The notes: generated from the sequence alone by a model not told the origin. 63,942 bases of DNA, filler included, from Aduncisulcus paluster (GCA_024181965.1; 7 parts of 7 records of this genome joined end to end with filler, not necessarily neighbours in it), one strand, 5' to 3'. Shown: positions 4,268 through 63,424, numbered from the whole stretch's first letter. Numbers and translations: made by a program.

Positions 4268-4570
4268 ATTTTATATTGTTTGGATGTGAGTCAATCTCAA
4301 TTTGAGATTCTCAAAACAATCTTTATTGTGATCACTATGTGAGAATTGTGCATATTTGACATACAAATTAATAATTACTTGGTAAGTTTTCATACAATAA
4401 TTTATTTTTTTCACCATAAATGCTCAAAAGCAATAGATATAAACTTTCAATAATAAATCCTGGTGCTTGGATAATTTAAATCCAAAGAGTGAAAACAATA
4501 CATGAAAGATTTTATTTAATAACTTATCTATATTAAAAGGTAAAAGATTAAACAGACGAGTTAGTTAAAA

Positions 4571-6244
4571 TTAGATCTGGGGACCACCCTTGGCGATAAC
4601 GACGTCAGGGAAAACTCCTTCGTATTGCTTGAAACCCTTCTTGAATAACTCACAAAGCTGAGTAGCCTTAGCATCGTAAGCTTCCTGAGACTTCCAAGAA
4701 TTCCTTGGGATAAGAAGCTCAGAAGGAACATTTTTGACAGCAGTGGGGATCTCGAGACCAAAGAATTTATCGTGAATAGAACCTCCTTCCTTCTTCATGC
4801 TCTCAACAAGACTTCCATCGTGGATGGCGTCAACAATGCTTCTGGTGTGTTTAAGGTGGATACGGTGTCCTTCACCGTAAGCTCCTTGAACGAAACCAGT
4901 GTTGATGAGCCAAACGTTACTTCCATGTTTCTCAACAAGGTCAGCAAGAAGCTTGGCGTAGACAGATGGGTGCCAAATGAGGAAAGGTCCACCGAAGCAT
5001 GGGGAGAAGGTGGCCTTGGGCTCAGTGATACCAACCTCAGTTCCGGCAACCTTGGAGGTGAAACCGAGAGCGAAGTAGTATTGTTGTTGTTGTCTGTTCA
5101 AACGAGAAACGGGGGGGAGAACACCGAAGGCATCGTAGGTAAGGAACACAACGTGCTCAGGGTGGGATCCAGGGGTGGTGCAGCAAGGGATCTTGGCGAG
5201 ACGGTCCATGTGCTCAATAGGGAAAGAGGAACGAGTGTTCAAAGTGATGGAAGTGTCATGCCAGTCGACAGTTCTGGTGTCTTCACCCTTCTTGTCCTTG
5301 ATGAACTTAACGTTCTCAAGAATGGAACCGAAACGGATGGCTTTGTAAATATCGGGCTCCTTCTCGGCATCAAGGTCGATAACCTTAGCGTAGGCACCTC
5401 CCTCGATACAGCAGACACCGGTATCATGCCAGATGTGCTCATCATCTCCGATAAGCTCTCTTCTGGGATCAGCAGAAAGGGTGGTCTTACCAGTACCAGA
5501 AAGACCGAAGAAGATGGTGCACTTCTTGGTAGTGGGGTCTTCGGTACAAGAACAGTGCATGGGGAGGAAGTTGTATTCCTTGGGGAGGTAGTACATAGCG
5601 TAGGTGAGAAGACCCTTCTTCTGTTCACCGGCGTACATGGATCCAAGAACAACCTGCTCCTTGGTGTCAAGGCTGAGGTTAACACTGGCATCGTTACAAA
5701 CACTTTCAACAGATTGGTCGGCAGTCTGGGCACCAGCGTTGTACATGAGGAAATCGGGGACAAAAGCTTCCTTCTCTTCCTCAGTGATTCTCTTCATCAT
5801 GTTCTTCATGAAGATGGCGTGGTAGGCAAGACTGGAGATGATTCTGACCTTTCTCCAGCATTTCTCTTCCCAACCGATGATACCATCAGTAACGTATAAT
5901 CTATCACAAGAAGACAAGAATTCGATAGCAATCTTCTTGTTGGCAGCGAAACCCTCTTCAGAGATAGGCTGGTTGGGGGAAACTGAACCCTTGGTGTCAC
6001 GGAGGTGAGCACCCTCGGGCAACCACCAAACATCATCCTTGCTTCCCTCAGAGTAAACAATACGTTTATCCTTGGGGGATCTACCACAGTATTTACCAGA
6101 GTAAGCAACAAGGGCACCCATGTCACTCACCTTGGCACCCTCATGGAGGATGGCCTGTTCGTAAAGAACGGCAGCGGGAGCGTTGTGGAAGATAGTTTTG
6201 GTTTCGAGGTTCTTAATTCCGTAAGCAGCAAGATCAAGAGGCAT
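4571..6244 (-). CDS. pckA: Phosphoenolpyruvate carboxykinase (ATP)
   Basis: Motifs GRSPKDK, YAGEQKK, MHCS, P-loop FFGLSGTGKTTLSAD, LIGDDEH, EGGAYAK, NTRSSFP and FGVLPPVS. Strong codon bias (C/T-ending codons, AAG). Confidence 0.97.
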   Translation of the reverse strand: MPLDLAAYGIKNLETKTIFHNAPAAVLYEQAILHEGAKVSDMGALVAYSGKYCGRSPKDKRIVYSEGSKDDVWWLPEGAHLRDTKGSVSPNQPISEEGFAANKKIAIEFLSSCDRLYVTDGIIGWEEKCWRKVRIISSLAYHAIFMKNMMKRITEEEKEAFVPDFLMYNAGAQTADQSVESVCNDASVNLSLDTKEQVVLGSMYAGEQKKGLLTYAMYYLPKEYNFLPMHCSCTEDPTTKKCTIFFGLSGTGKTTLSADPRRELIGDDEHIWHDTGVCCIEGGAYAKVIDLDAEKEPDIYKAIRFGSILENVKFIKDKKGEDTRTVDWHDTSITLNTRSSFPIEHMDRLAKIPCCTTPGSHPEHVVFLTYDAFGVLPPVSRLNRQQQQYYFALGFTSKVAGTEVGITEPKATFSPCFGGPFLIWHPSVYAKLLADLVEKHGSNVWLINTGFVQGAYGEGHRIHLKHTRSIVDAIHDGSLVESMKKEGGSIHDKFFGLEIPTAVKNVPSELLIPRNSWKSQEAYDAKATQLCELFKKGFKQYEGVFPDVVIAKGGPQI

Positions 6245-7351
6245 TTGACGCAGTCAGTGTGACAAAAATGTAAAAGAACAGTGATGACAATATGTGTTGA
6301 TGACCATCCTTAATGCACATTGCTAATGCACATAGCCTTAAATAAGACGATCTATGAAATAAAAAAAAACAAATGTCCGAAGAACTATTGAATTATTCTG
6401 ATAATCAATTATACAATAAAAAAAATTCCAAGAATTGGAGAGGAAGGTGAAGATAATCATTGGAACAAAATCATACCTACTATCTGATTTTTAATAAAAA
6501 ATAAAGGGAAAAGGGAATGACATTGAAAACTTTTTATCAATTTACGAAATTGTATGACGAGACGGGCTTATAATCACAAATTATTAATGGTTGAGAATAT
6601 ACAGAATCCTGAGAAGACAATCACAAAAAATAAAATGATTTTCAGAAAAAAAAAATCATAATGAGCCCAAAATATTTTGCAAATTTCATTTGCATTAGCT
6701 GATATCTCAAGTCCTGAGAAATTAAATTCAACATGGATAAAAAAAGAAACAACGATATTGATTATGGATTAAATTCAATTGCGTATAAGAGAAATCAGTA
6801 AATAAATCAGATATTGCTCACGTTTATAACGGTTTTGTCAAAAAGTGGAGTTATGAAGGAAAATATAAAATGGTTAATTAAATTAACTTCATTGTAAGCT
6901 CATTCTAAATTATTATTATTTAATGAAAAAAAAAAACAATGAATTGATGGTGATATAAGACAAGGGAATCTGATAGCTACAATAGAAAAAATAAAATAAA
7001 GAGGAGGGATAAGAAATAATATATATCACCAATAGAATAAAATGACGATATGGGATATTCGAAATTAGCCAAACCCAAGACAAGGTCACGTCAAAATTTT
7101 TCTTGCGTCAAGCCTTGTCAAGAACAATAATTATCATCTCCGAGAAAGGCTAATCGTCACATATTCGAAACCTCAAAATTCAATAATTAATTTTTTTTTT
7201 GCTGCACAAGACTCATAATTCTATAAAGAAATCTGAATAGCCTTCTACACTATTAATTTGCATAGATCTCCAAAACTAGAATAAAATTATTCAAATAACA
7301 CAAATCATTGAAATAAACTTCAAAATAGAAAAGGATATCAAATTATTTATT

Positions 7352-10888: not shown

Positions 10889-11163
10889 TGTTGGTTTAAT
10901 AACCTTTATAATGATGGTGGAGCAAATTTACTAGTTTGAGAATAAAAGAATGCGCGAAGAAAGGTAAAATATAGTCTGTAAAGAAACACAAAAACTTTCA
11001 AATATGATCTTCGGTAATAGGATGGTAATAGACATTCTGATATCGAAGTAAATATATTAATTAAAATCGTATTATAGAATATATATTAAATATTCAATAA
11101 TAATACTCCTTAAAGAAAATAATAAAAACGTCTGCTTTTGGCAACAGCCGTGTTATTCTAACA
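10889..11163 (-). mobile_element. Solo LTR (275 bp) with 4-bp TSD ATGT
   Basis: TGTT...AACA ends, flanked by ATGT at 10885-10888 and 11164-11167. Near-identical to 29805-30079 (two differences seen). Strand is taken from the PPT of the other copy. Confidence 0.92.
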
Positions 11164-11602
11164 ATGTCTTCTTTGAAAATAGTTCAAATCAACAAAATCT
11201 AGTCATTTACTGTAGTCTACAGTTGTAGAATTGAGGAAACAATCACATAAATTCGGGAGTATCACCCTCCTCTTGTTCAAGAACATAGTGTAAAAGTCGA
11301 CCCATAGAATTTCTGTTGATCAAGAGTTGATGACATCAGTATGAGTGCCCTCAGATGTAGAACAAGAAAGGGAAGAAGAAAATCAGATGTGAAAACATTG
11401 TAAAAAATGAAATAAAAATCAAAATTACAGTAAACAAAAACCACTTGTCTAACCATAGATAATGTAACAACATTAATAATTAAAATAACACAAAAATAAT
11501 ATAAAATTATAATAATGTAAAAAGACAATAAGAGTTACAAACAGATTTGATGATGGGATTGAAATCTTTTTTCTTCGTTTTTGTGCCAATTTCTAAAATA
11601 TT

Positions 11603-13314
11603 CTATTGACCTCGTGTGGCTTCAAATTTCTTCCCATTGATTTCTCCAATAATTCTGTCAAGACCAATCAATCTTGCATTTCCATGGCCAAGTCTCTTGA
11701 CTTCAGAAGTCTTTTCAGATCTCTCCAAAATATCAAAAGTGACCGTCAAGCTACCAAGAGTCTCACGGAATGTACAGTTAAGATCCAAAATACTTGGACC
11801 CCACTGGAATTGTGCATGATCATCCCTGAAAGCAAGGCGAGAATGAACATTATTCATTCCTTCAAATTCAATAACGTTCCACACACCATTAAAGGTTGGC
11901 TCAGACCTTGGCTCAGGTCTGGCTGGTTCAGGCCGAAGCTCAGTTCTTGTCTCTATCTTGGGTTCTGTTTTAGGTTCTGTTTTAGGTTCTGTTTTAGGTT
12001 CTGTTTTAGGTTCTGTTTTAGGTTCTGTTTTAGGTTCCCTTTTAACACCATGGTGAGAAGGAGATCTCCTCCCAAGGTCCCTCACTCTCTCTCTTGCTTC
12101 TTGATTAAGATCAGAACGCACGCTGTCATTGGTTGTGTCATCAGAAGTCTGAGAACAGTGTCGATGAGAGGATTCCCTTGTTTTGGGATNNNNNNNNNNN
12201 NNNNNNNNNCAGTTCTTGTCTCTATCTTGGGTTCTGTTTTAGGTTCTGTTTTAGGTTCTGTTTTAGGTTCTGTTTTAGGTTCTGTTTTAGGTTCTGTTTT
12301 AGGTTCCCTTTTAACACCATGGTGAGAAGGAGATCTCCTCCCAAGGTCCCTCACTCTCTCTCTTGCTTCTTGATTAAGATCAGAACGCACGCTGTCATCG
12401 GTAGTGTCATCAGAAGTCTGAGAACAGTGTCGATGAGAGGATTCCCTTGTTTTGGGATCATGGAGATGGTCAGGCTCATCCAAGCTAGAAATTGTCCTAC
12501 GCTTGCTTCCTTTCTTTGGAAATGATATTTTATCGTCAGCCCAATCTTGAAGCTCTTGAGACCACCCATCTTCTCCAACTTTGTGAGCAATTTTAAGATC
12601 AGAACGATATTTTGAGGAAGCTTTTCGATAGCTATTCATTGCGGTTTTTACACGGCTCAACAGATCAGAAATCAGCATTGTAACCTCACTTTCTTCACCT
12701 AATCCCCTGAGATACTCACGTTTCTTCTGTTTTAAAACGTCCATAATGGTTTCATGACGAAATTCGGATGTGTCTTTGGAGATGTCCTTCAATTGTTGTG
12801 TAAGTATCAAAAATGAAGCATGGTCAACAATAGGATTGAATGATTGTCCATATGACGCAATCGTTGATTCCATTAACTTGACCTGAGATGGTGTCATCAG
12901 AGTTGGATTGGTGACATTCTGGACAAACTTATCAATTCCATCAATCTTCTTCGTAATTTTGCGGACATCTTTTTTAATTTCTTGGATACTCTGAATTTCT
13001 CCAAATAATTTATCGATACGGGCGGAGATATGACCAAGAATAGCTTTCTGAGATAAACCGTCCAAAGAAGTGGGTTCACCTGTCTTAGCGACATCTGAAG
13101 CAAGAGAAACTGATTCTAATGGTGGACATGTTCCATCAACTCCATCACGAAGCACGTCAATACGAAGATTCTTCTTATCCCACCTGAGAATCATTCTCTC
13201 GTCAATATCGAGGAAATCATTCTTTGTACTTCCTTGAGGGTATATCAAAATAAACCCACGCTTTAATGTTTTATGTGTTTTACGAAGAGGATTAGAGAAA
13301 AAGTGAATGGGCAA
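11603..13314 (-). CDS. Hypothetical protein with coiled coil, (PKTE)n repeat and C-terminal beta-barrel-like domain; interrupted by an N gap
   Basis: ORFs 12082-13314 and 11603-12121 share the duplicated segment around the N20 gap. The frame stays open upstream to ~13482, so the true start is unclear. Confidence 0.6.
11961..12032. repeat. Tandem 12-bp repeat (GGTTCTGTTTTA)x6, encoding PKTE on the - strand; second array at 12230-12301
   Basis: Read directly from the sequence. Confidence 0.95.
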
Positions 13315-17218: not shown

Positions 17219-17718
17219 AAGTTTTATTCGAAAAAAGTTTGTGTCTTTTAATATGTAATCCGTGATTGCTAATCATGTAGTACATGTGACATGAGATTAT
17301 TATCGCCTTTAGTGCTTATAATTACAGTTGTTATTTTAAATGTCTTTTCCACTTCTTTTTTATTTGCTTTTATTGTTATTCAATAACACGAAGGCAGCCT
17401 TCGGAAGGCTTCGCCAATGTCCTGTCTTTAATAATTTTCGTTTCGACTCGAAAGACTCGGAGTCTTACGAATATTTGCATTGAATTTATGAATTATTTCC
17501 ACAAATAATCCTTTTTATTTAAATAGAATATTTCAAATTTATAAAAAGTAAACTGTCCACGTTCAATCCTCACAGTATACAGGTTTGTGAATAAATTAAC
17601 ATGGGCATATAGGAGATAAGCTGGGTTTTTTGATGGAAGCCATGCTTACTATGCATGTAGCACCTGTTGCTGTTGTTCAGTCAACCTTTGCCACATATAG
17701 AGGCTAAAAAGATCTTTA

Positions 17719-20700
17719 ATGTGCGGATTTATCTATGATGAATCAATTATTGAGTTGAAATCCTGTGTAGACCACGGTTGTCATCGTTATGTCGGAAGAT
17801 TGATAAAATCTGTTGGTGGTTATGCTCCTGGTTCTGATGTTTCTTTATATTGTTTTCCAGGACTTAAAAAGAACTTGATGACCGTTGATTTTATTGAATT
17901 TATCCATGATTATTGCATGAATGCAATTTCTTTTCAAGAAGTTATCCAGCGAAATGGTGCTGTCAATCCTTTCGTAAAAATTTTTGGAGTATTTAAGACA
18001 TCGAAGGCTGTTCCCAAGTCCAAAAGATTCTATGGAATTATCACTGAGCTAGTTGAGCCGGTTCTTCCCTTGATGAAAAATGAAATTGTTGAGTCACAAT
18101 CTCTCCGACCTTTTTATCAGACATTGAAGAATTTGAGTTCCATTATCCCACTATCTACTCTTTTGATAAGGTAATTCACCTCATTCTCAGCCTCCTCTGG
18201 TTTTCACGGGTATCTTAATCCATTCGAGAGTATTGTTCGTGTATTTCGAGATGGTAATGGGGACAAAACAACTTTTTCAAACCAGTGTGCCTTTTTGTTC
18301 CCCGGATTCCACGTTCAAGTAGCTCTTAATGATTTCGACTGTGAAGATGAAAGCTCTGGTCAAAAATGGAGTTTTAGTCTCAAAGAGCACAAAGATCTTC
18401 TGTCCCCTCGTTTTGTTCGGTCTGGTAAAATATCGTGGGCTTCCGAATGTCATAACATCCACCGAGTTATTTCCATTCTTGCCGATGAGTCTCAACGGGC
18501 CTTAAAGTCCCCAGATAGAGATTCCATGGACGTGTTCCTTGAGTCATGCTCTATTTCTGTTCTAACAGTCCGTGATGTCACTCTATCCATGCTTGAAAGT
18601 GTGTGTTCGGCTATGGAAATGAGCTCCAATCATTTACTCTTTCAGTTGGACAAGGAAAGTGCAGCAAAGACCTCTATTGACTCTAAATCAGAAGATCTTG
18701 GCACCACAAAAGAGGGAAAAGAAGTTGAGAAAGAAGAAGAAGAAACCAAATCTGGAGATGGGAGTATTGTTCCTCATCCCACTTATGATCGTTCCGACCG
18801 TAAAGTTTATTCAATTGATGAAATTGAAACCTTTCATGAAACGTTTGGTGAGAAATTTTTCTCTTCTGCGTATAAATTTGAGATGAAGCAAAAAGCACAG
18901 ACTTTTGTGACTCAAGTGCGCGCTATTGTTGACTGTCCTTCCTCCGAAGTAATACCAAGATGTCAAAAGTTGATGGTATTATTTCATTAGAATATCAAGG
19001 AAGAATTTTCCCTGTGGTCTGATGCAGATGTATGTGTATCCCCAGAACTTTATCCGGCCATAATTCCACCCCTTTCTCGTGCTCTATTTGAGTATCAATT
19101 CAAATCCATGCTTAACTCCATGCTCGCAAAGATGAATGTTCCCTACTATTTAACCAAGATATTATCGAGGCCTGATACCACTCCTGATACTATTGGTTTA
19201 GTTTATGTTCTTCGTGATTTCTGCTTTGATGAAGGAGAAGGTGCAATCTGGAATCAAATATTCCAATCCTTCATCGATCTTATGACTTCACCTGACCCAG
19301 AAGAAGAAGAAGAGGGTAAGGCTGCAGATGATTTCTTTGAATTTCTTATAAATGAACAGGCCAAGTTTAAACATCGCTCTCCTGAAATCATTCCAATCTC
19401 ACAGGCTGTAAAAGTGAAGAGCCTTGAACTGAAAGACAAGATGTGGATTCCTGAAGGAGAGCCGGTGATGGGTGAGGAATTCTTCCAGAAACAATCACAT
19501 CTTTGCAAAAACTTTGATGATATTCTCAAATTATTCCCCGTTATTCCTGAGCTTCAATTTAAACCCCTTTCAAAGGAGTCTCCATCCGATTTGAGCATTG
19601 TTTTCCCTGAAATCTCTCTTGTTTCCCAACTTGCAAAGATTGAGAGTTTTTTCTTTTCTTACCATCGAGTTGTTCTTGGAATTATTTTTGCAAATATTAT
19701 TGATATCTTTGACAATATTGAGCAACTCATGATTCCTGATAACATTCTGGAGGTTATAAAGTGGTTGTATCAAATGAGAGACACTGATAAAGGTTGTGGA
19801 TTTTTCAACACTCTTTTATTCGCTCGTGCAAACAAGGATCTATTCCTCGCCGCTCCTTCGGATTCCCCTAAGGTTAGCGATATGAAAAAAAGAATCCACC
19901 TGTTGATATTCGAGTCTCTGTCCTCGATGGGCACTTTTGCCGGAGTTGAGTATTGTTTGATCAAACCCATATTTCAACATTTAATGGATATTTTTCTCAC
20001 TATAGGCGATTCTGAATCCATAATGTTTGATATTGAAGCAACCACAAAATCTGGTTTGTTTTCATTTGCCTTTGACATATTACTTGATTATCCTGCCTTT
20101 GATGAAGCCCTTCTTTTATTTTTCAATGGATTTTTCCAGTTATGTTCGTTCTCTTGATCAAACATCCAGAGAAGGATCCAAAACATCCCTTACTCATGAA
20201 TCCTCTCCTGAACAGAAGCTCAAGATTTTGTCTCAGTGGCCTGCGTGCATCGAAGAGTGGGAAAATTTTAAACCGATTCTTCGTGAGGATGGTATGGACG
20301 ATTTAAAACTCTCGATGTGTCATATTGATCTTATTTCAGATCTTGAGTCGTTATCCTTGTCTCACTGGCTTAGTGGAAATCCCTTGAGTGCTTTCCAGAA
20401 GTATACTTTTAAGGAGATTGAAAACAGTGCGCTCCAGTTGATTAAAGCCACTCTAGAAGTTTTGGTTGAAGGAACAGTGACTCTTTCATCCGTGCCTGCG
20501 ATAGATCCTGAACTGATTGATGGCCTTATCCATGCCAAATCTCTTAACGTTCTTTCCTTTATAGGGAATGATATCAAGAACATCATCGAAGTTCAAGATT
20601 ATATCTTTACTTTGCTAGATCTGCTGAAAGAATATGAAATTACACCGTCTTCTGCTCTTCAGAAAGATATTTTTGACATTTGGTCCGATTACACAAAGAA

Positions 20701-21769: not shown

Positions 21770-22302
21770 ATCTTTAAATTGATTGTTTGAGAAGAATGTC
21801 CAAAAATAGATATCTAGATTCTAGATGATTGATATGTTAAACAGCTGTTTATCTAGCATCGTAATTTCCTTCGGTTTGTTCACAAAGAACGGATCAGATT
21901 GGATCTAAATTTAGATTCTAAATTGACAGATCGTCTCGCACGAAATGAAACTTTTGAAAATAATTTTTATTTCCATTGGAAATTTTCCAACTTATTCTTC
22001 TATTTTTAGAATATCTATATGGCTCACTGAGATCTATCTAAAGTGAGACTTTCTTACAAATCAAGTATTTCACACCAAAATAATATTGTCTATATCATAT
22101 TGTCTATTCAGTCATTAGATCACAATCTATTGAAATTCTATAGAAAACAGAAACAATCTCAAGAATAAAAATTATTAAAAAAAAAAAAAAAAACTCCAAC
22201 AAGAAAAATGATTTCAAATATAACATTACAAAAACTAATTAATTAATCAATCTCTTCGTCTAAAACAAATCCAAGTCCTCCGTGAATAAACATTATCTAA
22301 AT

Positions 22303-27200: not shown

Positions 27201-29815
27201 ATATGAAACCGGCTGATATTGGAAAACTAATCAAAGCAAACACTGCAAAAGTGTCTTCTAATTTGTGTCAATTTGACAAATCTCTTCTTTCATCCGAGTT
27301 CATCCTTACTTCTAATGCTGAAGAACGCATAAAGACTGTAATAACATCAATCGAGTGTGGAATTCCCTTATTGTTGGAAGGAGACACAGGAACAAGCAAA
27401 AGTTACAGTGTTGAGGCAGCAGCTCTTGTTCGAGGCCTCTGTTTATCCAGTGTTGATAGTGCTCGAGACCACGATAATGAGAGTTCATCCTCTTCCTCTT
27501 CCTTTCATTCCTCTTCTTCGGAAGCTTTGAACCATTTCTCATCCAAATCATCCAGACCAACTCAAATGAAACTGTTGAGGTTCAATCTTTCCTCCCAAAC
27601 AACAAAAGCTGATCTCATTGGTCGCGAAGAATGGTGTGGAGATGCACTTCAACCATACAGATTCAATAGGGGAGAGTATTTAAAAGCTTTTTCTGAAGGA
27701 CATTATATTTTACTCGATGAACTTAATTTGGCTCCAGATAGTGTTTTGCAATGCATTGAAGCTTCCTTGGATAGCCGTTCTTTGTGGGTCAAAGAGCTCG
27801 ATAAAACAAGAAAATACACAATGCATCCCAATTTTAGATTAATTGCTACTCAAAATCCTCCACGAGGAATGTTCAGTGGGAAAAGAAAGGATTTGAGCTC
27901 ACAATTCTTGTCACGATTTAAACGCGTTTCATTCAGTAATCTCACAATTCCTGAGTGTGAATCCATCGCCAGACGTTCCAATCCAAAATTAACTCAGACC
28001 CAATGTCACAGTTTAGCACAAATTCACACATTTTTGTGTTCAATTAATCTTGCTTCCATCCCTTGTATTTACACTCTTAGAGATATGATAGGGGTTGCCA
28101 AAGCTCGACAAGTGACTCTAGGTTTCACAACTGTTTCTTTCGAACAATTATTGGGTTTGTTTTACGTAAAAAGATATTCATTTGATGAATTAAAACAAAT
28201 ATTTCAGCACAAAATCATTCCAAAACCGATTCAAACATTCCTTAAATCACAAATTGATTCTCATGGTTCAAATACCGCACCAACCCATCCTCAAAATCCC
28301 AAAAATAGACTTTCAACCCCCATGTCTATATTATATCCAGTTGTTCAACATCCCGATTTGTCCAATCCAGTTGCTGAACAAGAAGAATCAAAGGAAGAAG
28401 AAGAATCCAAATCAAAAGAAAATAAGAGAAATTTGCAATGTTTGATCGATTATTTTGATTCCAAGAAAGATTTTGAAGGTCAAGTTGGTGGAAATATCTT
28501 CAATTTACATTCAGATGACACAAATCTGTTATGTGCCGCTTATTTTTCTCATTCTCATTCTAAAAATATCGACGATGCTGTTATTGGTGCCATGCTTGGA
28601 AGACATGTGTTGTTCATTGGCCATTCCCTCAGTGGGTTATCCTTTATTGCAAGAGAAGCAGCTCAAAATTATCTCCAAAAAACCTATGATTCTTCACCAT
28701 CTGTCTCTTCATTATCAACAAACCCTCCACCATGTCAGACAATCGAATTTACATCCGATACTGATATTTCTTCAATGTTAGGCCAGTCTTTACCCATAAC
28801 AAGGCAAAAGAAAGGCAAATCTGTGCAATCTGTTGAATGGGAAGATGGTCCTGTAGTCAAAGCTCTGAAAGATGGTTCTGTGTGCATTCTTGACAATGTT
28901 GACAAAGGAGATCAAACTATTACCGAGCGTTTGAACCCATTATTGGAGAAGAATATGAAAATGGAAACGGAGAGTCGAGTATTTGAGCTCTCCGAAGCTC
29001 CAGAAGGAAACAAACATGTTAGAATTTCCACTCCTTTCCGATTTTTTGGGACTGCATGCATCACTGATCGTGGCCTCAATCTTTCACCAGCTTTTCTAAA
29101 TAGATTCCTGGTTATTCGAGTCGATCCTTTGACGGAATTAGATCTTGAAAAATTCGCTGCTAGTGTTGGATTAATTTGGAACAAAATGTTGGTGAATTCT
29201 ATTTTAAGAACACCTTTGCTGAAAAATAATTCTATTTTGGAACAATCTTATGATAATGAAGAAGAAGAAGATGTTGATGATGAGGAATCTTCTTCTTCGG
29301 ATATTGCTAATTATGGAATGAAAGGTGAGAAAGAATATCCATCTGAGAAAGATCAGTGCGAGGAAAAGGAATATAGTTCTTCAGATTCATATGATGATGA
29401 ATATTCTTCAATTTCTCCATCTTATTCTTCAGAATCCGAAGAACCGATGTTCCAGTCTAAAATTGAACTTTCTCAAGATGAAGAGAGTAGTTCAAGTGCT
29501 AAAAGTGACGATTCCATCCGATCTTTTGGAATTAAGAGTGAATTGGAGGATGGTAATGAAAAGGAGAGAATTTTGAAGCTTCTAAATATTTCTACCCATC
29601 TTCAAACAGCTCTGGATGAAGAATTCTCAATGAAAATATATGAATTTTGTTCATTTATCTATGATCAATATAAGAAATGTTGCCATGGATTTGATATTGC
29701 CCAATTTGTGACATTAACTAGGACTTGTGTGGGATTCATTCTTCATGATCAAATTCGATCCCAATTTATCCAAGATTTTTCGACAATGGAAGAAATTGAA
29801 AATGTGTTGGTTTAA
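24253..29815 (+). CDS. Midasin/Rea1-like AAA+ ATPase, 5' partial and truncated by an LTR insertion at 29805
   Basis: AAA module PLLLEGDTGTSKS / RFNLSSQTTKADLIG / YILLDELNLA / HPNFRLIATQNP / LSSQFLSRF. A second degenerate module has WEDGPVVKAL..G..CILDNVD...ERLNPLLE...LSPAFLNRF. The last codons (VLV*) come from the LTR. Confidence 0.85.
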
Positions 29816-31993: not shown

Positions 31994-33024
31994 TGACGGT
32001 ATTCTGTCCTTTTATTTGGACTCTTGATTCATTTTATCTTGTTTATTAATGTTTATTATATTAAAAACAAATATATTTCTATTATTATGTTTTATTATAT
32101 ATTATTATTATTATTATTCCGATTTTGCTTTTATTACATTGTTTTGTTCGAGTATTATTTATTGGTACCGAAAATTTCGTTTCTTTTATCCGTTTTGTGT
32201 TTTGTTTTTTGTTTTTATTGGCATTAAAGATTGAACCTTGTGAGGTCTTGTGGTATTGACTACAGTCTAATGAAGTGACTTGTCACATTCGAATTGTTTT
32301 CGTCTTTTTATTGTTGTTTTGCTTGTTTTTGTTTCAGCTTTTTTCCTTCGTATTGTTAAATTCTCATCTGTGAATACATCATTCTGTATTTGCCTCGAGT
32401 TTCGTATTTGTTATAACCACATTGTGTGTATAATCAGTTTTATTTCGTTTATTAAAAAATGATTTCGATCATGAAAGTATCGTTATCAATATTGTTTCTA
32501 TAGCTTTTGTCCCTTCTATCATTGTAATTCAATGCTGATCTGTTTGTTTTTCCTTCTGGTTTTCGTTCGTTTGGGATCAAAAGTTATTGGAAATAATAGA
32601 ATTTCGTTTGTTTATTGTGTGATACCTTTTTTATTGAAATATTTTTGGAGCAATTCGGTTTTTGACTCAAAAACTTTCATTTCTTCCATTTCTTGCATTT
32701 TGGTCTTGCTTATCATTTTCAAAATGACATTTTGTTTAAATTTGTTTATTCTAGTGAAGGAAATATCCATTCATTCTTTTTCTGCCAAGATACTATTTGA
32801 ATCTGTTCTACTTTAGTACATAGAATTCTGCTGACATTATGTCAGACATCGAAGTAAATATCTTATCCAAAAACATTGGGACAATGATTGGACGTTGTTG
32901 TGATGGACTATGATGCCACTGAGTCAGTGGCACTGACGATATGACCGTTGTCATGGGTCCATGGATGACAGAAATGAAAGAATAATGCTATTATTAGAAA
33001 TAATTCGTACTTTGCAAATTTTGA

Positions 33025-40042: not shown

Positions 40043-40635
40043 TAATAATTATGTGTTTTATATAAAATAAGTGCAAAAAATAAGTTCAAAAGAAACAAAT
40101 TGTTTTCTGGATAGAGAATAATTTCTCTTGAAGCAAATAGTAATCCATCATTACTACCACATTTAAATATTTGTGGGATAATACATCTATTATTTATTTT
40201 CTGGCAAAATGGAAATTATTATCGATCTTGTAAAAAATTTAGCGAGAACCTGTTACGTCCTATAAATAAACTGAATCTTGTGAAAGTCACTCAAAAATCG
40301 ATTTTCCTGCCAGGAACAGTGACTGTTTCGTCCTATTTTATAGGAAAAAGAGATAACTGGATCTCAGATTGCATGCTGCTGTTTGCGAACGGGAATGTAT
40401 CGTCATAGAATTTATTAAGCAAAAATCATCTGCAAACTTAGATCGAGATAATTTGCACAATTGTGAATTCCTCAATTTGAGTTGAGATCAAAGAGAAGGG
40501 AGAGAGGAAGAAATTAACGAGAAAAAAAAAGTGAGAAGAAAAAAATATATATATATTTGCGACCAACAAGGTTCGGGAAAAAAAAATTAATGTTCAAGCA
40601 ACGTAAGTTTAACACACAAACAGAATAATGTCGAT

Positions 40636-42032: not shown

Positions 42033-42509
42033 TAGTTTACCAAAAAAAGAAATCCAACATGATCAACTTTGAAAAAGAAAAAAAAAAATACGAAAAGGGT
42101 TTCAAAAATGTTTAAAATCCTTCTTGTAACAGATTTTTATTTTTATTCGTAATTATTTTGCTATTCATGGCCAATTCTAGTTGACCCCATGCCGGGATAA
42201 AACGAAAATACCGGGACCGGCAGGTGCCGGTATTTAAAATACCGGCAAAATGTTCCAGCCAGAAATAGTCATTAAATTAAACATTTATGATATTATTTTA
42301 AAGAATTTGTGTGTTTATAACTCGATTTAAGCATTTGAAACATTATAACTATTTGATATCAGACATTGGAAGTATTTGGGAGTTTTTTGTCACATTTTGA
42401 AAGTGATAGTTCATAATTATAGTGAAAAAATGCTTTTAAGGTTACTTTTATAAATTTAAAGCGACTTTTATGCTCAAATTAAATGAATGAAGATTTTATT
42501 TGTCATTTT

Positions 42510-45417: not shown

Positions 45418-46395
45418 AGCTGATATTGGTTGGTATATACAATAATTAGAGGATAATGATAATATTTCTAGATAGATGTATTGCACAAGTGTATAATTGT
45501 TTCAAAAGCAATTATATGTATGACAAATATGAAATTTTTGCATATTTTAGGTGAGGCAACTTTTTGGGTGTTATCGAATACGAAACCCAAAAAGTTGATG
45601 AAATTAGGCCTTCGAATTAGGCATAAATTTGGGGGGGGGGAATATTTTTTGGGTTATTATTATTATTGTAACTAATATTGAACAATTTGAATTGAATTTT
45701 CGCTTTAATCCTATCAATACGTGACTATTGAATGTATAAGATGTAATCATTTTTGTATTATTATTATTGTTCTTTATTTAAGCTATTTTCTTATGTTTAA
45801 AAAAGAGAATTATTTTTAAGTCCTTTCATTTAGGTGGATATTGATAGAAATATGGAAAATGAATTTACGACGAGAATATCAAGTCAAATACAAAATATCG
45901 ACAAAGAAAACAATTTAAATGTCATTATTATTCAGAGATTCAACCATTTCAGTTGCAAATAAGCTTGGAACGGTCACAAAATCGCAGGTGTGTGTGTGTT
46001 CATTCCATTATGGAAGGTATGATACCTTTCTCTGAGATTATGAGCCTTCTTCTTACGTCGCCAACACCTATGTGGTCAACTATCTTCTAAACTCCGCTAG
46101 GAGAAAAATAAAGCGTGTTTTGCGATTCGTCGTTCGCAAAATTGTTTGCGAAATCCCTATTTAATAGGAAAATACTATGTAAAATATACAATACATATAT
46201 TGGAGAATTATCCAACTGATATGTAAAATATTAACAAAATCGTCATAAAAACCATAGATTTGCATTCTAAAACTATTATAATTGAGTTCAAACAAGTGAA
46301 GCACAAATAATTGTATATTTTCACAATGTTTTAAATTTGACATTGCCAGTGGTACCAGTAGTACCGATCTATCCGTATTATTCACATCCTATATT

Positions 46396-51080: not shown

Positions 51081-52649
51081 GGCTATATTATGGCAAACCA
51101 CCGGATAGTTTCGAAACAGGTCTGTTTTATTCGAATGTTGCGATGCTACCGGCATTACCGCCACCTACCGGTGATATTTTATTTTAATAAATTTGCTAGC
51201 CGTCTTCCATAAGGAAGTCAATAATAATATTATTATTGTTATACCCATACTTTTCAAAATTTTTTCCTTTTATAAAAACTTTGAAAATACTGCTTTCTAA
51301 GCGAACCCATATTTTTCTATTTTATTACTAGTAATCTCCAACTTATTTTCATTTATCATGCCTACCCACAAGAATTACAAACGTAAGGGTGAAAAGTGAA
51401 GTTGTCAGACAGGGAACAAGTATTATCAACAATGTTAAAACTGAGAACCGGCTGGGAATGTAATAAGATAGCCAGTTTACTCCATATTGCAAGATCAACT
51501 TTTTCAAGAACATTTGCACATGTTATTTTAATTATGGAAGAGCGATTAGTCCCGAAATTTATCACGAGACCCCCTATTCAGTCTTTGAGCACGGCAATTC
51601 ATGTTCCAAATGGAAAACTTATTGTTGACGGAACGATACAACACGTTTCACCACAGAGGTGTTATTGTTTCGGGGACAAAAAAGCATGGTTTAGTCATAA
51701 GCATCACAGCTATGGCATAAAATCCCAGGTTATTTGTGATGTGAAGGGCATAGCACGATTCGTCCATGCTGGATTTGTAGCATCGTTACATGACAAGACA
51801 TTATTTCTTGAACACGGAGATTATGATCTTGTTACGAGAGTATCTAAATGGTCACGTTATAATTGCCGATTCCGCGTATCATGGAATTGAATGTGGAGAT
51901 GATGGGTAAAAGCTGTATTTTCAGATCATATTTCCGGTCTCAGAGGAGATGAACGGAGAATTCAGCATGATATTAGTGCTGCTAGAATGATAATTGAGCA
52001 GTACTATGGTCGGTTGAAGCGTGTGTGGAAAATATTAACAAATACATGGAATCTTGATGCAGAACTTTATAGAGCCACATTTACAGTTTGTTGTGCGATT
52101 ACCAATCAATTAATTGAAATATCACCACTCCGGAGCGAAGAATATAAGTATCACCGAAAGGTCGAAATTAATTGGTTACAGAAGATGACAGATAAAGCCA
52201 AGAAAAGGCGGACTTCTCAGCAAATTTATAGAAATAGAACAAGTATGCAAGGTGAAATTCTCCAATTTGAAGTTGCCGAGGCTTCGAGTTCATTATTAAC
52301 ACTTTCGGGTGATAACGAATAAAAATTCCATTCTTCATAATAAAAAAATCAAAAAAATAACAAAAAAAAAAAAAATAATACTATTAATTATATTTCATCA
52401 ATACAGCACAGAAAAACATTATGGAACAGGTATGTCGTTTCGAAACAAGTCTGTCGTTTCGAAACAAACCATGTTGTTGCAAATAAATAGGGGTTGTTCA
52501 GGAACAAATATTTTTGTTTCGAATTTACTTTGTAGTTGCGTAACGCACCTAATATTTTTTTGATTTTATTAATTTGGTCGCTGTATTGAAAACATGATTT
52601 CGAAAATTGACGAATCAAATTACAGTTTTGCCCAATTCCAATATAGCTT
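51081..52649 (+). mobile_element. Harbinger/ISL2EU-type (DDE_Tnp_4) DNA transposon, frameshifted transposase 51358-52322
   Basis: HTH LSDREQVLSTMLKLRTG; LIVDGT; FSHKHHSYGIKSQV; SLHD; IADSAYHG (other frame); RMIIEQYYGRLKRVWKIL. Ends GCTATATT/AATATAGC, with TAA on the left and GTTTCGAAAC motifs near both ends. Boundaries are approximate. Confidence 0.75.
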
Positions 52650-52887: not shown

Positions 52888-53750
52888 TTAGGATCTTCTA
52901 TTAACATGTTTATTTAAACATACTATAGACAGAATTAGCTTATTAATTCTATTTGATATCATGGGATTTATATATTTAAAACGACTATTATATTTCATCA
53001 TTGAATTTAGCATGAGTGTATCTGTTAATTGAGATGATCTGGAGGGTCGATTTAAATTCTTAACTACACTAAAGAATCTCTCTAACGATGCCCCTGAGAT
53101 CGGAAGAATGGTCATTTGTCGAACAATTTGATATAATGCTGGATATTCTGTCTCGATGTCAACTTCACAGGGTTTCGATATACTTTCACAATACCTTCTT
53201 AAATCAACCGATTAATCTTCGGCAAGTGCAATCCCTGTTAAATAGATTCCTTCTCTTAAATACACAAACCTTAAATTTAGCGATTCTTTCCAGGTATGTG
53301 GTTGAAATGCAATTATACAAAAATATATCATGTACTCATTCTCGCACAAAAGATGTCCAGGATCATGCAATTCTGTATCACCTTGAATATCCAGTCCATC
53401 TTCCTCTTCAATCATTGAAACAATCGTTTCTTTCAATAAATTTAACTCATCGCATGTTTCATTTCCAAAATGATTGGATACAAACAATCTCCTGCCATCA
53501 CAAAGAATTTTTCTTTGAATATTAATGTCTTTCCGACGACTAATCGTTTGCAAGTTAAATCTAACTCACCAACAATTGCTTTTTATTGTTCCGTCAGCAA
53601 GAAATACCATTTGTTGTGAATTACGAATAAAGAGCATCGGGAATATTTGTTTTAACTTAAAAACAACATTTTCACTGATGATATTCACGTTAGTTTCTGT
53701 ATCTAACAACGCCTTGGCCTCGAACTGCAGATAGAACCATGTTTGATTTA
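52888..53750 (-). pseudogene. Decayed hAT transposase with dimerization domain
   Basis: MTILPISGASLERFFSVVK...RSSQ matches the hAT dimerization motif P.S.A..ER.FS; upstream ORFs are fragmented. Confidence 0.65.
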
Positions 53751-54520: not shown

Positions 54521-55086
54521 AATTTATAAAGTTTAACAATAATTATTGTTAATTTCAAAGAAAATAAAATAAAATAATCTTTGGGCTAGCAATTTTTTTT
54601 TTTTTTTTTTTCAGATTCAATCAAATACAACACTGGTTTTTGAACGTCAGAGATTGTCATAGAGATCGAGCGATCAATTTTCTTGGCGTATATATGTTAA
54701 GAAGAAACTCAGGCCTAATGGTTCACAGACGAAGAAACAGCCTTCTATGGAATACATATGAAGGTACTACCTTATTTCTAGTAGAAATCTTTTGAAAAAA
54801 TGCTAAGCTGATGAAGTTAGAGCGTAAACAAGGTGCTAGCTCGTGATCGAACACCCACATCCACAAAATAATGTTCACATAAATCTCAAAAATAACGCTA
54901 TATTCATGGTCTTGAGCTGGAAGGAGGCCTCAAAAACAGTATTCTTCATAGGGCTAAAGATTGGCGGGGAGATAGAAAATAATATGGTGGAAAACTGCAG
55001 ATAACAATAAATCATACTACGATTTATTAATATAGTATATTGGATGTGACATTCTTTTTCAACTAAATTCTTATCAACTCGCACCA

Positions 55087-55284
55087 TTAACGGTCACGAT
55101 CAGATATTATTGATATTATAGATGATTTCTGTAATCCTATCCTGTCTATTTCCTCTTCAATCGCAGTTGTTAGAAATTCTGTTGGTTCTGGCATAACTTC
55201 ATGTATCATACTATGATACAGGATAGTATCCGAATAACACGCTAATCTGTTCTTTATATTTCTAACAATAAATCTTACAGTCAC
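55087..55284 (-). pseudogene. Probable hAT transposase fragment
   Basis: FLTTAIEEEIDRIGL..SIISIISDR resembles the hAT catalytic-region pattern (I..IvtD). Confidence 0.35.
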
Positions 55285-55605: not shown

Positions 55606-56740
55606 TCATTGGTTTTGAGTTGTATGCCGACCATCCAGCAATCGTTTGGCGATCATTAATAAGGTCCTGTCCAATTCATCAATGTCAGTGACTCCATCAT
55701 CAATTAAGTCATAGAGTGGGCCACTCAATTTGCGAATGTATATGACCTTGACGTAGATTTTAGTGTCCGGAGCTGAGTCATACACTTCTAAAAATGAAGA
55801 ATTATACTTATGAATACAGTTTAAGTCATTCTTCCATTGAAATTCAATCTTCTTCAGACGTGCGAACAGTTCATCACCTGTGGATGGAGCCAGTTGTTTG
55901 CGCAATAGATCCATTAATGGAAGATCTCTGTCTTTGGCTTGTGAATAGAATCTAATAAGTCTGCACACTGTGGAAGAAAGGCATAATTCAATAGGTTTAG
56001 ATCCACCTTTTTGCATATAAGCTTTGTGGTGCCTTACAAACTTTTCATACTCGTGAATGTCTATTTTCTTAAGAACTGGGGGTTCTATTGATGTAGAAGA
56101 ATGATGAAATGGGTTTGTGGGGGATCGGGATGGAATAGAGAGGGTGGGAGGGTGACAGTGTCATCTGGAGTTTCAAGATCTTTTCTTAGCAGTTCCTTCT
56201 CAGGAGGAGGTTCTTCCTCTTCTTTTTCAAAGTCTCGCAGATGATGCTTGATAGGCATCTGTCCTACTTGAACCTCATTGGTCTGTTGGACCATGGACTT
56301 TACCATTTTCACTAGTGATTGGACGGAGCCTGTTAAATCGTTGATTTGTTTTTGCTGCTTCTCCAGGGATCCGAGATCGTTATCTCAGGTTGTCCCTGAC
56401 TCGCATTGGCTTTAGCGATCGGTGTTCTCGGGATCATGCTTTCCGAAAACAAAAGAATAAATATAAATCAAAATATATAGAAGAATATTGTCAGAATTTT
56501 AACAATAATTATTGTTAACCGATAAAAATATTAAATTTAGATCGGTGGCTAGCAAATTGATTCATTTGAGAGAATCAATTCGATTCCACAATAGATGGAT
56601 CTAGCCGCTGAATCTATAAGAGCAAATAAGTGAGCTTCACCCCCAAGAGCACGGTACTTCTGAAATTCTTTAGTAAAGTGTCGAAATAAGGGTTTTCCGA
56701 ATCCAAATAGTCTCGGAATCTTCAGAATATCCGTTTTCAT
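55606..56740 (-). pseudogene. Gag-like retrotransposon fragments
   Basis: Two fragments share F..F..Y...GG...L/I..L (YEKFVRHHKAYMQKGGSKPIELCL; FRHFTKEFQKYRALGGEAHLFALI). Located next to RT relics. Confidence 0.35.
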
Positions 56741-57421: not shown

Positions 57422-57466
57422 CGAAACACTCTTTCTCGATCAGCTTCCATGCTCTTTGTGTTGCTG

Positions 57467-58501
57467 TTAACGTTTTTGAAATAAATCTAATGATACTCTT
57501 TCTCCGTCTGGTGCCTTTTGGAGTAGAACACCCCCGGTCCCATAATCAGAAGCGTCAGTATACAATTGTAACTCCGATTCTTTTGTCGGGAATGACAATG
57601 TGGGTGTATCACTCAGCTTTTGTTTTAACTTGCTGAAAGCGTCTTTGCATCTCTTATCCCAGGAAAAAGGAACATCTTTCCTTGTCAATTGAGAAATAAA
57701 GAACGTTAACTCAGAACAATCTCCAATATAATCTCGGCAGAAATTTATCATTCCCAAAAAGGAACACACCTGCTTCTTTGATTGTGGTGTCTTAATCTTC
57801 AATATGGATGTCACTCTTGAAGGACTCATTCTATTTCTTCCTTAGAAATCACGAATCCCAAATAATCAAGTTCTTTCACACCAAATGTGCATTTTCCCAC
57901 GTTAATTAAGAGTTTATATTCTTCTAGCCTATTGAATACCATCTTTAAGCTCATAATAAAGTCTTCATCATCTCTGCCCATAATTATTAGAATGTCGTCA
58001 ATGTATATAATGCATCTTTTCCCAATTAGGTCAGCAAAGATGTGTGTCATTGCCATCTGAAAGTGGCTCGGACCATTTTTCAACCCAAAAGGCAGCACAT
58101 TCCATTGGAAGACGCCAAAAGGGGTTTCAAATGCTGTCAAATACCTTTGGTCTTCTTTTATAGGAATTTGATGAAATCCACTGCTAAGGTCGATTCAGTC
58201 CAAAAACAGAATGACCCTCTAACTGGTCGATTAAGACATCAATCTGGGGAAGGGGAAATTTGAATCCAATTGTTATCACGTTCAATCTTCGATAGTGGAT
58301 ACACATCCGCCATTTGTTTTCCTTCTTTGGAACAATCACCAGAGGAGAGAATGCGGGTACTTTACATTCTACTATCTTCTTTTCTTTAGATAGGTTCCTT
58401 ATTTCTTCGCTAATGAAATTCATATGTTTTGGGGACACTCGTCTTCTTTCCAATGCAACGAATTTCTTCCCTTCTTCAATAATTGTTTCATATTCCTCCA
58501 T
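57467..58501 (-). pseudogene. Frameshifted Gypsy reverse transcriptase/RNase H
   Basis: SPLVIVPKKENKWRMCIHYRRLN; TAFETPFG..PFGLKNGP..FQ; YIDDIL; FLGMINFCR; LYTDASDYGTGGVLLQ. Confidence 0.92.
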
Positions 58502-61264: not shown

Positions 61265-61498
61265 CTATATGTAAAAATATCTTGAAAAAGGGAAGTTTCT
61301 ACTAATCTAAATCGTTTTTTATAAATTTTCATTGCTTTACTGGTGTTCATAATGCTTGTTTTGGACATATTATTCTAAATCTTTAAAATTGAAATTCCTT
61401 TTATATATAATTGATAAAATAAATAGAAAATATAACAGAGTTAATATATATCAGGTATTATCATCAAATAACCATACAATCTCACTTCAAGACAAAAA

Positions 61499-62653
61499 AT
61501 GAAATCTTGTCTTCATAACATGAAAAGAAGAATACCAGAAACTGAGAGAGAAACTGTACAGGAAGATAAACTTGTTAGATCGCCTGTCAAACGAGCTCAT
61601 TATGGAAAAGATGAGGAAGATGAATACGAGAGTGAGCATGAGGCCAGGTCGAATGAAGAAAGCCCAAAAATAATTGAAGATGAGTTAGAAAAAGAAGAAA
61701 GTGCTCAAATTGCATCCGAAGAAAAAGTTTCTGAAGGTCCATTTCATCTAGAGGAGAAGGTTGAAGATTTTGTCATATCACCACAAGAAGAAGTTTCGAG
61801 ATCTGACGATGAAAAGAGTAGCGAAGATGAATATGGTAAAGATATTCAGGGACATGAGCTAGAAGTCGAAGAAATGCCTCGTGTAATTACCTCTGCTGAA
61901 ATGGACACTAAGCTCCCTGTTGGGGTGAAATTTACAAAAATCGTGTTTAAAATTAAGCATAGATTAATTCCATTAATTCTTTTATCTCTTGGAATTCTGT
62001 TTATTACATATTCTACTCTCTTCATCCTCTCCGTAAAAAGTGAAAAGTTCGCTGCTTTTATTTCTGATAGGATGCAAAAACCAATTGATGATGGGCGTTT
62101 TGATGTATTTGGTGATGATGACTCGGTTTCGATGATTTTAGAAGAGGTGTTTTCCCATAATCCCTCTCCTGCTGATATTGATGAGAGTATCCTTGCTATT
62201 TCTTGTGCATCTAATATTCTATTCCCTTTTAATTTTCCTATTTGTCCTGCATTTAGAGATTTATTCGTTTTAGATGAGGAAATGCTTGAAATGTGTGGTG
62301 TGACATGTAGTGGAGCCTTGCTCGCTTGTGATTCAAATGGTCATGAAGTATCCGCAGTTAAAAAGGAGGATGAATTATTTCAACTTCTTGCTGTTCATGC
62401 AAAAGTCATGAAAATGAAAGGTTTACAAAAAGAAATGACCCGGCTCATGAATTCTCGATTGGAGTTTGTCCAATCGTTGTTTGAAGATAAATCAATCATT
62501 ATTCAGGCACCATTTGAATATTTTTTGAAACAAAAAGGAAGAAACTTGTCAGAAATAACTCTTGATGAATATTTGAATCTTCTTAGAGTGGAAGCTGAAG
62601 TGAGAGAACATACAAAAGGATGCGGTTGTGAGTTTGTAAAGTTATGTCAATGA
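61499..62653 (+). CDS. Hypothetical single-pass membrane protein with acidic N-terminus
   Basis: 384-aa ORF; TM LIPLILLSLGILFITYSTLFILSV. Confidence 0.8.
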   Translation: MKSCLHNMKRRIPETERETVQEDKLVRSPVKRAHYGKDEEDEYESEHEARSNEESPKIIEDELEKEESAQIASEEKVSEGPFHLEEKVEDFVISPQEEVSRSDDEKSSEDEYGKDIQGHELEVEEMPRVITSAEMDTKLPVGVKFTKIVFKIKHRLIPLILLSLGILFITYSTLFILSVKSEKFAAFISDRMQKPIDDGRFDVFGDDDSVSMILEEVFSHNPSPADIDESILAISCASNILFPFNFPICPAFRDLFVLDEEMLEMCGVTCSGALLACDSNGHEVSAVKKEDELFQLLAVHAKVMKMKGLQKEMTRLMNSRLEFVQSLFEDKSIIIQAPFEYFLKQKGRNLSEITLDEYLNLLRVEAEVREHTKGCGCEFVKLCQ

Positions 62654-63424
62654 GTTTCACATCTATCGGATAGAGTCTGATTTGTTTCTCGATTTTCTTT
62701 GAAATCTGCAAGTTGCAGATCATCTGTGCATGATGCACACATGCCAATACTGTTATGACAATAAATATTAATAGTGTATCATACACTGTGACATGATGTT
62801 ACAGAATACTTGCTGAACATGATGGTCAAATAATCCAAGTATGTAATTTTTATTATAAAATTATTAGGGTAATTATATTAATAAATATAAGAACGATACT
62901 TTTTATGCTCTTTTCTTTGAAATTGAGCATTTTTTTGGGAAGTTTGCTCAACGTCGACATAAGAGAGTTCACAATTATAGATTGTCAAAAATTATACTAT
63001 CATATTGCTTTGATCTTTGTGAGAATACTGATATTGTGATGGGTTTTTCTCTTCATCTCTACATAATGTATTTTCATCTACATTCAAGTGTAACGCTAAC
63101 CACTTCAATTCATTTAGTCATGTTATCATGAATAACGCTGAATAGTTTTTAAATTTATTAACAACATATAATACAATTCTTCAGCCATTCCATTTGATTC
63201 GTCAGACCTTTAATGACAAACTTCAATAGTATTTGGGGGGAAATTGCCTACATTTATTGATGTTGGCTCCTTATTTCCCATAATTTCTTTCTAAAATGTC
63301 ATTTTTATTTGGATTCATTGATTTATGTGATTTTGTTTTTTCTTTAGAATATCTCGCTCTAGACATTTATTAATGCTTATTTTAGTTTTTTAGTGGATTT
63401 TTCTGAAGAAGAATAATTGATTCT

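Follow-up and report, generated by a model that had tools for sequence, protein, structure and literature searches.

Single-base-centred palindromes between the genes of Aduncisulcus paluster as probable excision footprints of two kinds of DNA transposon

Palindromes with a single central base

The stretch of DNA analysed here (the window, 63,942 nt) comes from the genome of Aduncisulcus paluster (GCA_024181965.1) and consists of seven contigs joined by N44-TTAATTAATTAA-N44. The genes seen include proteasome, kinase and PH-domain genes, and the DNA between genes carries perfect inverted repeats with one unpaired base at the centre, which are the subject of this report. The organism, which we take to be a metamonad, is a compact eukaryote, and its source assembly is fragmented (29.55 Mb in 23,235 contigs). 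A preliminary description of the window had listed 16 of these palindromes with arms of at least 7 bp, calling them non-coding, spread over five contigs and without consensus. All 16 are present with a 1-nt centre, and all lie outside open reading frames (ORFs) of at least 100 aa, the length used for this check. The list is incomplete, as the window holds 34 such palindromes (compared with 3–11 for every other spacer length from 0 to 10), and the positions of the contig joins place the 16 on four contigs rather than five. The supposed lack of consensus has to be given up, because the spacing of the centres, the centre base and the flanking dinucleotide are all strongly non-random.

Counts were made in the window together with other stretches of the same genome, about 636 kb after de-duplication, divided into 154,295 nt of non-coding DNA and 482,128 nt inside stop-free frames of at least 150 codons. 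This sample represents about 2% of the assembly and is skewed to long contigs and to some loci chosen for transposon content. Chance levels were obtained from 20 local dinucleotide shuffles, and coding DNA was also shuffled in an earlier, 510-kb sample. Counting by spacer length, as the preliminary description had proposed, gave 136 non-coding palindromes with spacer 1 and arms of at least 7 nt, compared with 29.7 +/- 6.4 after shuffling (maximum 43 in 20 shuffles), whereas spacers 2 and 3 were both near chance (26 vs 19.5 and 24 vs 20.8). The excess was highest at an arm length of 7 (96 vs 19.9 shuffled). It is found in non-coding DNA only: the ORF-covered part of the sample holds 38 spacer-1 palindromes with arms of at least 7 nt, and coding DNA of the 510-kb sample showed no spacer-1 excess (34 vs 37.8 shuffled). 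Spacer-0 palindromes were also counted above their shuffled level (49 vs 25.4), and some of them adjoin ends resembling long terminal repeats (LTRs); no triple structure was found among them, triples being at chance for 3–10 bp.

A fold-back artefact of library preparation or assembly could produce sequences of this kind. The assembly is fragmented, with duplicated sequence around N gaps, and the two sequencing runs that were compared as assembled contigs (X1, X2) both derive from one sample. However, coding DNA has no excess, and independent contigs carry two clusters unchanged: those at 17274-17466 and 21812-21990 show zero letter differences between the contigs of the two runs, in which the contigs carrying both clusters have word depths of about 1300 and 75–200. 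Decayed copies exist as well, and a transposable element has inserted inside one of the palindrome pairs. An artefact is therefore barely credible, and the signal given by the palindromes between genes is genuine and strong, with known chemistry explaining most of it.

Two geometries of the probable scars and their empty sites

Among palindromes with arms of at least 7 nt, neighbouring centres lie 7 apart in 14 pairs and 4–6 or 8–13 apart in none. Each such pair (class A) has the form abcdefg h'g'f'e'd'c'b'a' bcdefgh, built from a single 8-bp word, abcdefgh, with primed letters standing for complements. The association with remnants of 8-bp duplications, which the preliminary description had put forward as a check, is borne out by this double template: in non-coding DNA it was matched 14, 8 and 12 times at 0, 1 and 2 mismatches (0, 0.2 and 2.2 times after shuffling), while words of 7 or 9–12 bp gave no perfect match in the non-coding sample. 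No perfect class A match was found in coding DNA. Fourteen of the 18 pairs spaced 7 apart with arms of at least 6 nt have both arms of at least 7, and because both arms reach this length both centres are fixed as complements. The full 22-nt product is dominant (14 perfect matches, compared with 0–3 for each intermediate with 4–7 added bases), and short scars of the Ac type, with one added base per side, are at most weakly enriched (14 vs 5.5). Ac-type elements prefer targets with T at position 2 and A at position 7; T stands at position 2 in 19 of 42 strand-symmetrised class A sites, a figure obtained in AT-rich DNA and without a shuffle control.

Empty sites, which the preliminary description had proposed to look for at orthologous loci or in haplotypes, were recovered at paralogous loci in three informative pairs, and the palindromes are missing there. 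In the case of class A, two copies of a hAT-domain sequence could be compared, of which one (locus L001) carries the 22-nt form and the other (L002) a single 8-bp site, a difference of 14 nt. Three other comparisons (L047 with L053, window positions 1-330 with L139, and L143 with L076) gave no usable empty sites.

Palindromes outside class A pairs have C or G at the centre in 61 of 102 cases, compared with 8.5 of 26 after shuffling. Abutting pairs are ordered C then G in 41 instances (0.85 shuffled) and G then C in 5 (1.15 shuffled). In 27 of the 41 C-then-G pairs the two bases before the C are the same as the two after the G; one pair shares three bases and none shares four. The dinucleotide shared by the 27 is AA/TT in 8, TA in 7, GA/TC in 3, AT in 3 and another one in 6. 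The arms of these class B twins measure 3–11 nt and overlap by 0–5 nt, most commonly by 2 (n = 11) or 0 (n = 9). Locus L099 carries a twin scar adding 16 nt where its paralogue L063 has a single TA with T on both sides, and 35 nt beyond it a one-sided, C-centred form adds 9 nt relative to L063; the comparison of L103 with L063 provides a further class B scar and its empty site. Since only T adjoins the TA of this empty site, the C and G of class B are not target bases. A hAT-geometry scar of a 4-bp C-ab-G duplication was rejected as an account of class B, since C precedes the dinucleotide in only 21 of 54 oriented sites, and so was a flush footprint of the plant CACTA or RAG type, given the fixed C or G centre and spacer-0 triples at chance. 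Most simply, the C and G would come from an element that has C...G ends and makes a 2-bp duplication, its first base being left behind on each flank as the tip of a hairpin.

The 136 non-coding palindromes divide into 45 in class A (0.9 shuffled), 22 in class B (0 shuffled), 36 singles centred on C or G (8.3 shuffled) and 33 singles centred on A or T (20.5 shuffled). Of the 16 first listed, eight fit the hAT 8-bp scar, three the C...G twin scar and two are C/G-centred singles, leaving three in neither class. The features of the window are given in Table 1.

Palindromes are denser within 150 nt of ORF 3' ends (1.53 per kb) than near 5' ends (0.48 per kb), which agrees with the bias to gene 3' flanks noted in the preliminary description. 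A threefold difference of this kind is what selected structural signals for 3'-end formation, termination or replication, also suggested there, might show. That explanation is not supported, however. Paralogous loci exist without the palindromes, which also occur in repeated, non-genic DNA, and the rules described above concern the geometry of a duplication and not stability, the C-then-G order and the 7-nt spacing being irrelevant to folding. Matches at 0, 1 and 2 mismatches are about equally common, as in decaying neutral DNA, and the uneven positions are compatible with insertions being selected against in promoters and genes. We consider structural signals highly improbable.

A further alternative starts from breaks or stalled forks, where template switching or snap-back synthesis would re-copy a short word backwards independently of any transposon. 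A motif followed by its inverse and the motif again is the generic product of two template switches, and the scars far outnumber the surviving elements. Nevertheless, template switching does not explain why the word has exactly 8 bp, with none at 7, 9, 10, 11 or 12, why the centre is a single base and not a 3-nt loop (spacer 3 being at chance), or where the C on the left and the G on the right come from when the empty site lacks them. On these grounds it is improbable.

Table 1. Scars, related palindromes and a transposase remnant in the window (window coordinates; PD, preliminary description).
Feature	Position	Strand	Remarks
Class A 22-nt scar	4294..4315	.	Perfect template match; probable site ATCTCAAA; 4293-4309 and 4301-4315 of PD
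Class A 22-nt scar	17389..17410	.	Perfect match; site CGAAGGCT; unchanged in contigs of runs X1 and X2
Class A 22-nt scar	21969..21990	.	Perfect match; site ATTTCCAA; absent from PD list; unchanged in both runs
Class A 22-nt scar	32713..32734	.	Perfect match; site TCATTTTG; absent from PD list
Class A 22-nt scar	32916..32937	.	Perfect match; site CCACTGAC; 32914-32932 and 32923-32937 of PD
Class A scar, right side one base short	11209..11229	.	Site ACTGTAGA
Class A scar without left tip base	21903..21923	.	Edit distance 1 to template; site ATCTAAAT; 21908-21924 of PD
T-centred single	21812..21826	.	Putative short Ac-type scar of a self-complementary 8-bp site; counted in neither class
T-centred single	32831..32845	.	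Putative class A scar trimmed on the right; counted in neither class
Class B twin	196..229	.	Centres C202, G218; shared GA; 2-nt overlap at joint
Class B twin	17441..17466	.	Centres C17447, G17459; shared GA
Class B twin	54761..54788	.	Centres C54767, G54781; shared TA
Class B twin	55202..55231	.	Centres C55211, G55226; shared TA
Class B twin	62716..62739	.	Centres C62721, G62732; shared AT; contains 62725-62739 of PD
Class B twin	62773..62802	.	Centres C62780, G62795; shared AT; one mismatch in right palindrome
C-centred single	17374..17388	.	Adjoins the class A scar of 17389..17410; probably class B, one-sided or overwritten
G-centred single	62704..62720	.	Overlaps the class B twin of 62716..62739; probably class B, earlier and overwritten
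Twin, centres T and G	46003..46028	.	Shared AT; likely class B with changed left tip
Twin, centres C and G	40304..40327	.	No shared dinucleotide; fits class B only in part
Two inverted ACCGGCA motifs	42225..42247	.	At the margin of a repeat that locus L023 also has; probably no scar but a repeat-end motif
hAT transposase C-terminal domain remnant	53014..53154	-	PF05699 above cut-off, E 3.1e-5; contig C10891:3103-3243

Several other observations were made in the window. The ACCGGCA-type motif of 42225-42247 recurs at repeat edges. Perfect spacer-0 palindromes with 10-nt arms lie near retrotransposon-like sequence at 51219-51238, 54533-54552 and 56499-56518 and form part of the spacer-0 excess. 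Fragments of the reverse transcriptase and RNase H of an LTR retrotransposon are found on the minus strand at 57467-58140, and the 278-bp repeats at 10889-11166 and 29805-30082, which are 99% alike and start with TGTT, are probably solo LTRs. An ATP-type phosphoenolpyruvate (PEP) carboxykinase is encoded at 4571-6244; its 119 best database relatives are only 49–54% identical, those with names being bacterial or metagenomic, and they were uninformative about lineage. The gene may represent an old gene transfer. The 20-N gaps within 11941-12458 and 36675-37346 each have near-exact duplicates of 250–330 bp on either side, a scaffolding artefact present in many other contigs too, and the palindrome at 36860 and 37206 is in this way a single site counted twice. 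At 19298, inside the frame 19108-20157, both sequencing runs have a 3-nt insertion relative to the assembly.

Candidate transposons and a proposed excision mechanism

The palindromes are very probably the accumulated excision footprints of two kinds of DNA transposon, hAT elements (class A) and elements with C...G ends (class B), formed through hairpins on the flanks. The observations in support are the excess, the two geometries, the three informative empty-site pairs, and the existence of elements with matching ends and duplication lengths. The preliminary description had spoken of scars of a hairpin or fold-back repair process. Its first half is retained, in that these appear to be scars of hairpin processing; a general fold-back process is disfavoured relative to transposon excision because the geometry depends on how long the duplication is (8 or 2 bp) and on a base not present in the empty site.

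Cut-and-paste excision would close the host flanks into hairpins whose tip is a single unpaired base, and the host would open each hairpin off-centre to give long 3' tails, which would then be joined by microhomology. For class A, the tip would be the complement of the base next to the element, and the two tails would be complementary over exactly 8 bases, so that annealing would give the 22-nt scar, 14 nt longer than the empty site. Arms of 7 and a gain of 14 nt can be derived from this complementarity of tails originating in an 8-bp duplication. For class B, with C...G ends and a 2-bp duplication ab, the element's first base would stay on each flank as the tip, and a left product ..ab[C]b'a'.. 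would be joined over 0–5 shared bases to a right product ..b'a'[G]ab... Clusters would represent repeated hits at the same places. Both types of scar usually shift the reading frame and would for this reason survive almost only outside genes, which suggests selection as the cause of the position bias.

The state of host repair is consistent with such a scheme. A Ku profile found no match in the genome, the control being positive in Bacillus, and the genome has a single ATP-ligase domain. Metamonads are described as lacking non-homologous end joining, and Carpediemonas as having alternative end joining (PMC8516963); A. paluster is not mentioned in the part of that source drawn on here. Loss of Ku-dependent joining would leave microhomology alone, which could account for the dominant 22-nt product and the long tails of class B. 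The hairpin intermediates themselves, and the assignment of each scar to an enzyme, are likewise what we infer from the products.

Elements suited to class A are present. The genome gave eight hAT domain matches, one of them inside the window (Table 1). Exact 8-bp duplications flank both complete copies of a hAT family whose inverted ends are 21 nt long, and these two copies are about 99% alike where aligned. In a second hAT-domain family neither of two copies (L013:4218-4779 and L097:1502-2276) shows an 8-bp duplication; these elements are short, have CATAC ends and retain a remnant of the hAT C-terminal domain. A third copy of this CATAC-ended family is broken by LTR-like insertions with duplications of about 5 bp. 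The family was rejected as a maker of class B, a 2-bp repeat being present in one copy and none in the other.

For class B, the leading candidate is a clade of elements with CATG ends. There were 26 distinct matches to its 9–10-nt seeds, of which 19 continue with the family motif and have TA outside in 19 of 19; the seven that diverge after the seed were dropped as chance. TA flanks the clade's complete copies (L092:286-915 and C12514) on either side, and its transposase has 45 matching pieces in the genome. One of these transposases, P0122, contains the motifs YVDD (184), CDSP (273), CSRC (295), DFLH (329) and EERLN (477), with putative catalytic roles assigned by analogy, and is compared here with the CMCT clade (EnSpm/Mirage/Chapaev/Transib). 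That clade is defined by C(2)C and H(4)H motifs and usually has CA..TG ends (PMC12730594); the criteria used here were a DDE core, C(2)C and H(3-4)H after the second D but before the E, and a duplication of 2–5 bp. The C(2)C motif is present in P0122, and H-x4-H is seen in four relatives, the first H being N in P0122 itself. No Pfam family matched transposases of this type above cut-off; the three database hits were all from A. paluster, and a second search returned 12 proteins, most without stated origin. The nearest Atlas clusters (PF02992, PF06869 and PF18759; CACTA, Mirage and Plavaka) have features of 0.93–0.96 and template modelling (TM) scores of 0.60–0.75. The structure model made for the clade's transposase is poor (mean pLDDT, the predicted local distance difference test, 46), and Foldseek matched it weakly to HzTransib and RAG1 (best E 1.1e-3). 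A PF02992 profile search gave no match in the genome and none in the controls either. Taken together, the CATG clade probably belongs to CMCT.

A second candidate is a family with CACAGG ends, of which five ends with differing flanks were found in the genome. Its complete copy (L053:318-4463; G000:C12574) is 4.1 kb long with 22-nt ends and a 2-bp CC duplication, and sits inside a class A scar. Deleting exactly 2 bp along with it, but not 0, 1, 3 or 4, restores a perfect 22-mer; the duplication is therefore 2 bp, and the position within a class A scar implies repeated hits at one spot. The copy carries two ORFs of no known family, without a recognisable transposase, and is a Pack-like cargo element; no usable look-alike was found for an ORF in it. 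A DDE_Tnp_4 family was rejected as a class B maker because of its 3-bp duplication and AGG ends, known from one complete copy. That copy (L136:684-2554) is Harbinger-like, has AGGTCAG ends and lies within a 3-bp duplication of AAT; the family has 17 matches in the genome, including a broken one at 51396-52106 of the window.

Class B need not have arisen through hairpins made by a CMCT transposase. A mariner-like cut staggered by 1 nt inside the element, followed by sealing by a host ligase, would give an identical product, and a transposase of another group could also be responsible. Plant CACTA footprints look flush, 20 of the 27 scars lie away from TA, and the CACAGG family lacks a recognisable transposase, all of which fit such an origin. 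On the other hand, the sole abundant clade found with C...G ends and 2-bp duplications has a transposase whose nearest folds, if weakly, are the hairpin-forming HzTransib and RAG1, 45 matching pieces of it are present in the genome, and DDE_Tnp_4 as another maker is disfavoured by the duplication length and ends of its one complete copy. We regard a maker outside CMCT chemistry as rather unlikely.

Comparison with known systems and possible meaning of the scars

Class A corresponds to the textbook hAT-type mechanism. In hAT excision a one-base overhang is sealed into a hairpin (PMC2921059), and in Ac/Ds footprints the centre is the complement of the base that adjoins the element, with microhomology being usual (PMC5873905). 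Class A scars share with Ac/Ds and Hermes the palindrome centres, the 8-bp duplication and the microhomology at the joint (PMC5873905, PMC2921059). The hAT footprints of plants and Candida are varied and have added palindromes of mostly 0–3 nt; here one full-length 22-nt product prevails and has accumulated genome-wide in the wild.

The cutting geometry to which class B points appears to be undescribed for its group of transposons. The flank hairpins of RAG and Transib are flush. The class B tip, in contrast to these and to the Arabidopsis Pack-CACTA1a footprints, would hold one element-derived base. Class B would share with RAG/Transib and plant CACTA a hairpin on the host flank that the host opens and joins, adding palindromic bases (PMC5499845); flank hairpins are known for hAT, Transib, RAG and Muta1 (same source). 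Muta1, a MULE, resembles the present case in its flank hairpin and long duplication, with a hairpin of 43+43 nt and more than 90% of excisions precise (PMC5499845), but no spacer-0 triple for 6–10 bp and no 9-bp scar was found in our sample. The single MULE match in the genome (L095; G000:C9722:17267-17560) is an 809-aa frame with a weak SWIM match and is possibly domesticated. CMCT also takes in EnSpm/CACTA, Mirage, Chapaev, Transib, Plavaka, Lanisha and ESTA, the last being EnSpm-like elements with TA duplications (PMC12730594). ESTA agrees with the CATG clade in ends and TA duplication only, and the part of PMC12730594 drawn on here gives no excision chemistry for it. In the open-access literature no biochemical account of cutting by EnSpm-like transposases and no statement of an offset hairpin was found. 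We are evenly divided on the proposal that an ESTA-like or new CMCT transposase places its nick one base within the element's end and closes the flank hairpin with this base included, and that without Ku-dependent joining every excision leaves a readable scar.

Several points weigh against the excision reading or parts of it. About 12 A/T-centred singles with arms of at least 7 nt above chance (33 vs 20.5) fit neither class, and 14 of the 41 C-then-G pairs have no shared dinucleotide. The CATG clade is specific for TA, which is shared in just 7 of the 27 class B scars (background 8.7%), so that further families would have to account for the remaining 20; one complete copy of the CACAGG family is known, and the transposase search there was without result. 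The ancestral states come from paralogues at three informative sites, no excision event having been seen, and few elements survive in comparison with the thousands of scars that would have to be explained. The absence of Ku was seen in a fragmented assembly and is hence not proof. Lastly, among 34 empty-site clones of Arabidopsis Pack-CACTA1a with its AAG duplication (a tally of the PMC6379663 supplement in which clones are not independent), ten show flush additions, one or two could hold an element-derived C or G, eight are wild type and the rest are deletions or partial duplications. Because these plant footprints fit flush hairpins, class B needs chemistry unlike that of its plant relatives, a difference that makes class B interesting and is at once the chief reason to doubt how it has been assigned.

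Excision footprints are usually too short and varied to be recognised in a genome, whereas here they are stereotyped. What is new is the description of two geometries with controls, empty-site pairs for both and candidate maker families for both. Roughly one scar event per 1–2 kb of non-coding DNA is estimated, which would make excision a major writer of intergenic sequence even though few elements survive, and this suggests thousands of scars genome-wide, a rough figure as the sample is small and biased. The two templates can be applied to any genome, above all to those without classical end joining. For the EnSpm-like transposases, relatives of the RAG recombinase, class B amounts to a precise and testable prediction on cutting chemistry and, if true, would add a third register of hairpin excision, next to the flush one of RAG/Transib and that of hAT, which lies one base into the flank. 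If this is so and Ku-dependent joining is indeed lacking, the A. paluster genome would preserve the traces of thousands of past jumps. How transposases cut, how long their duplications are and how far from the tip hairpins are opened could then be learned from sequence without biochemistry, even for transposon families that have since vanished.

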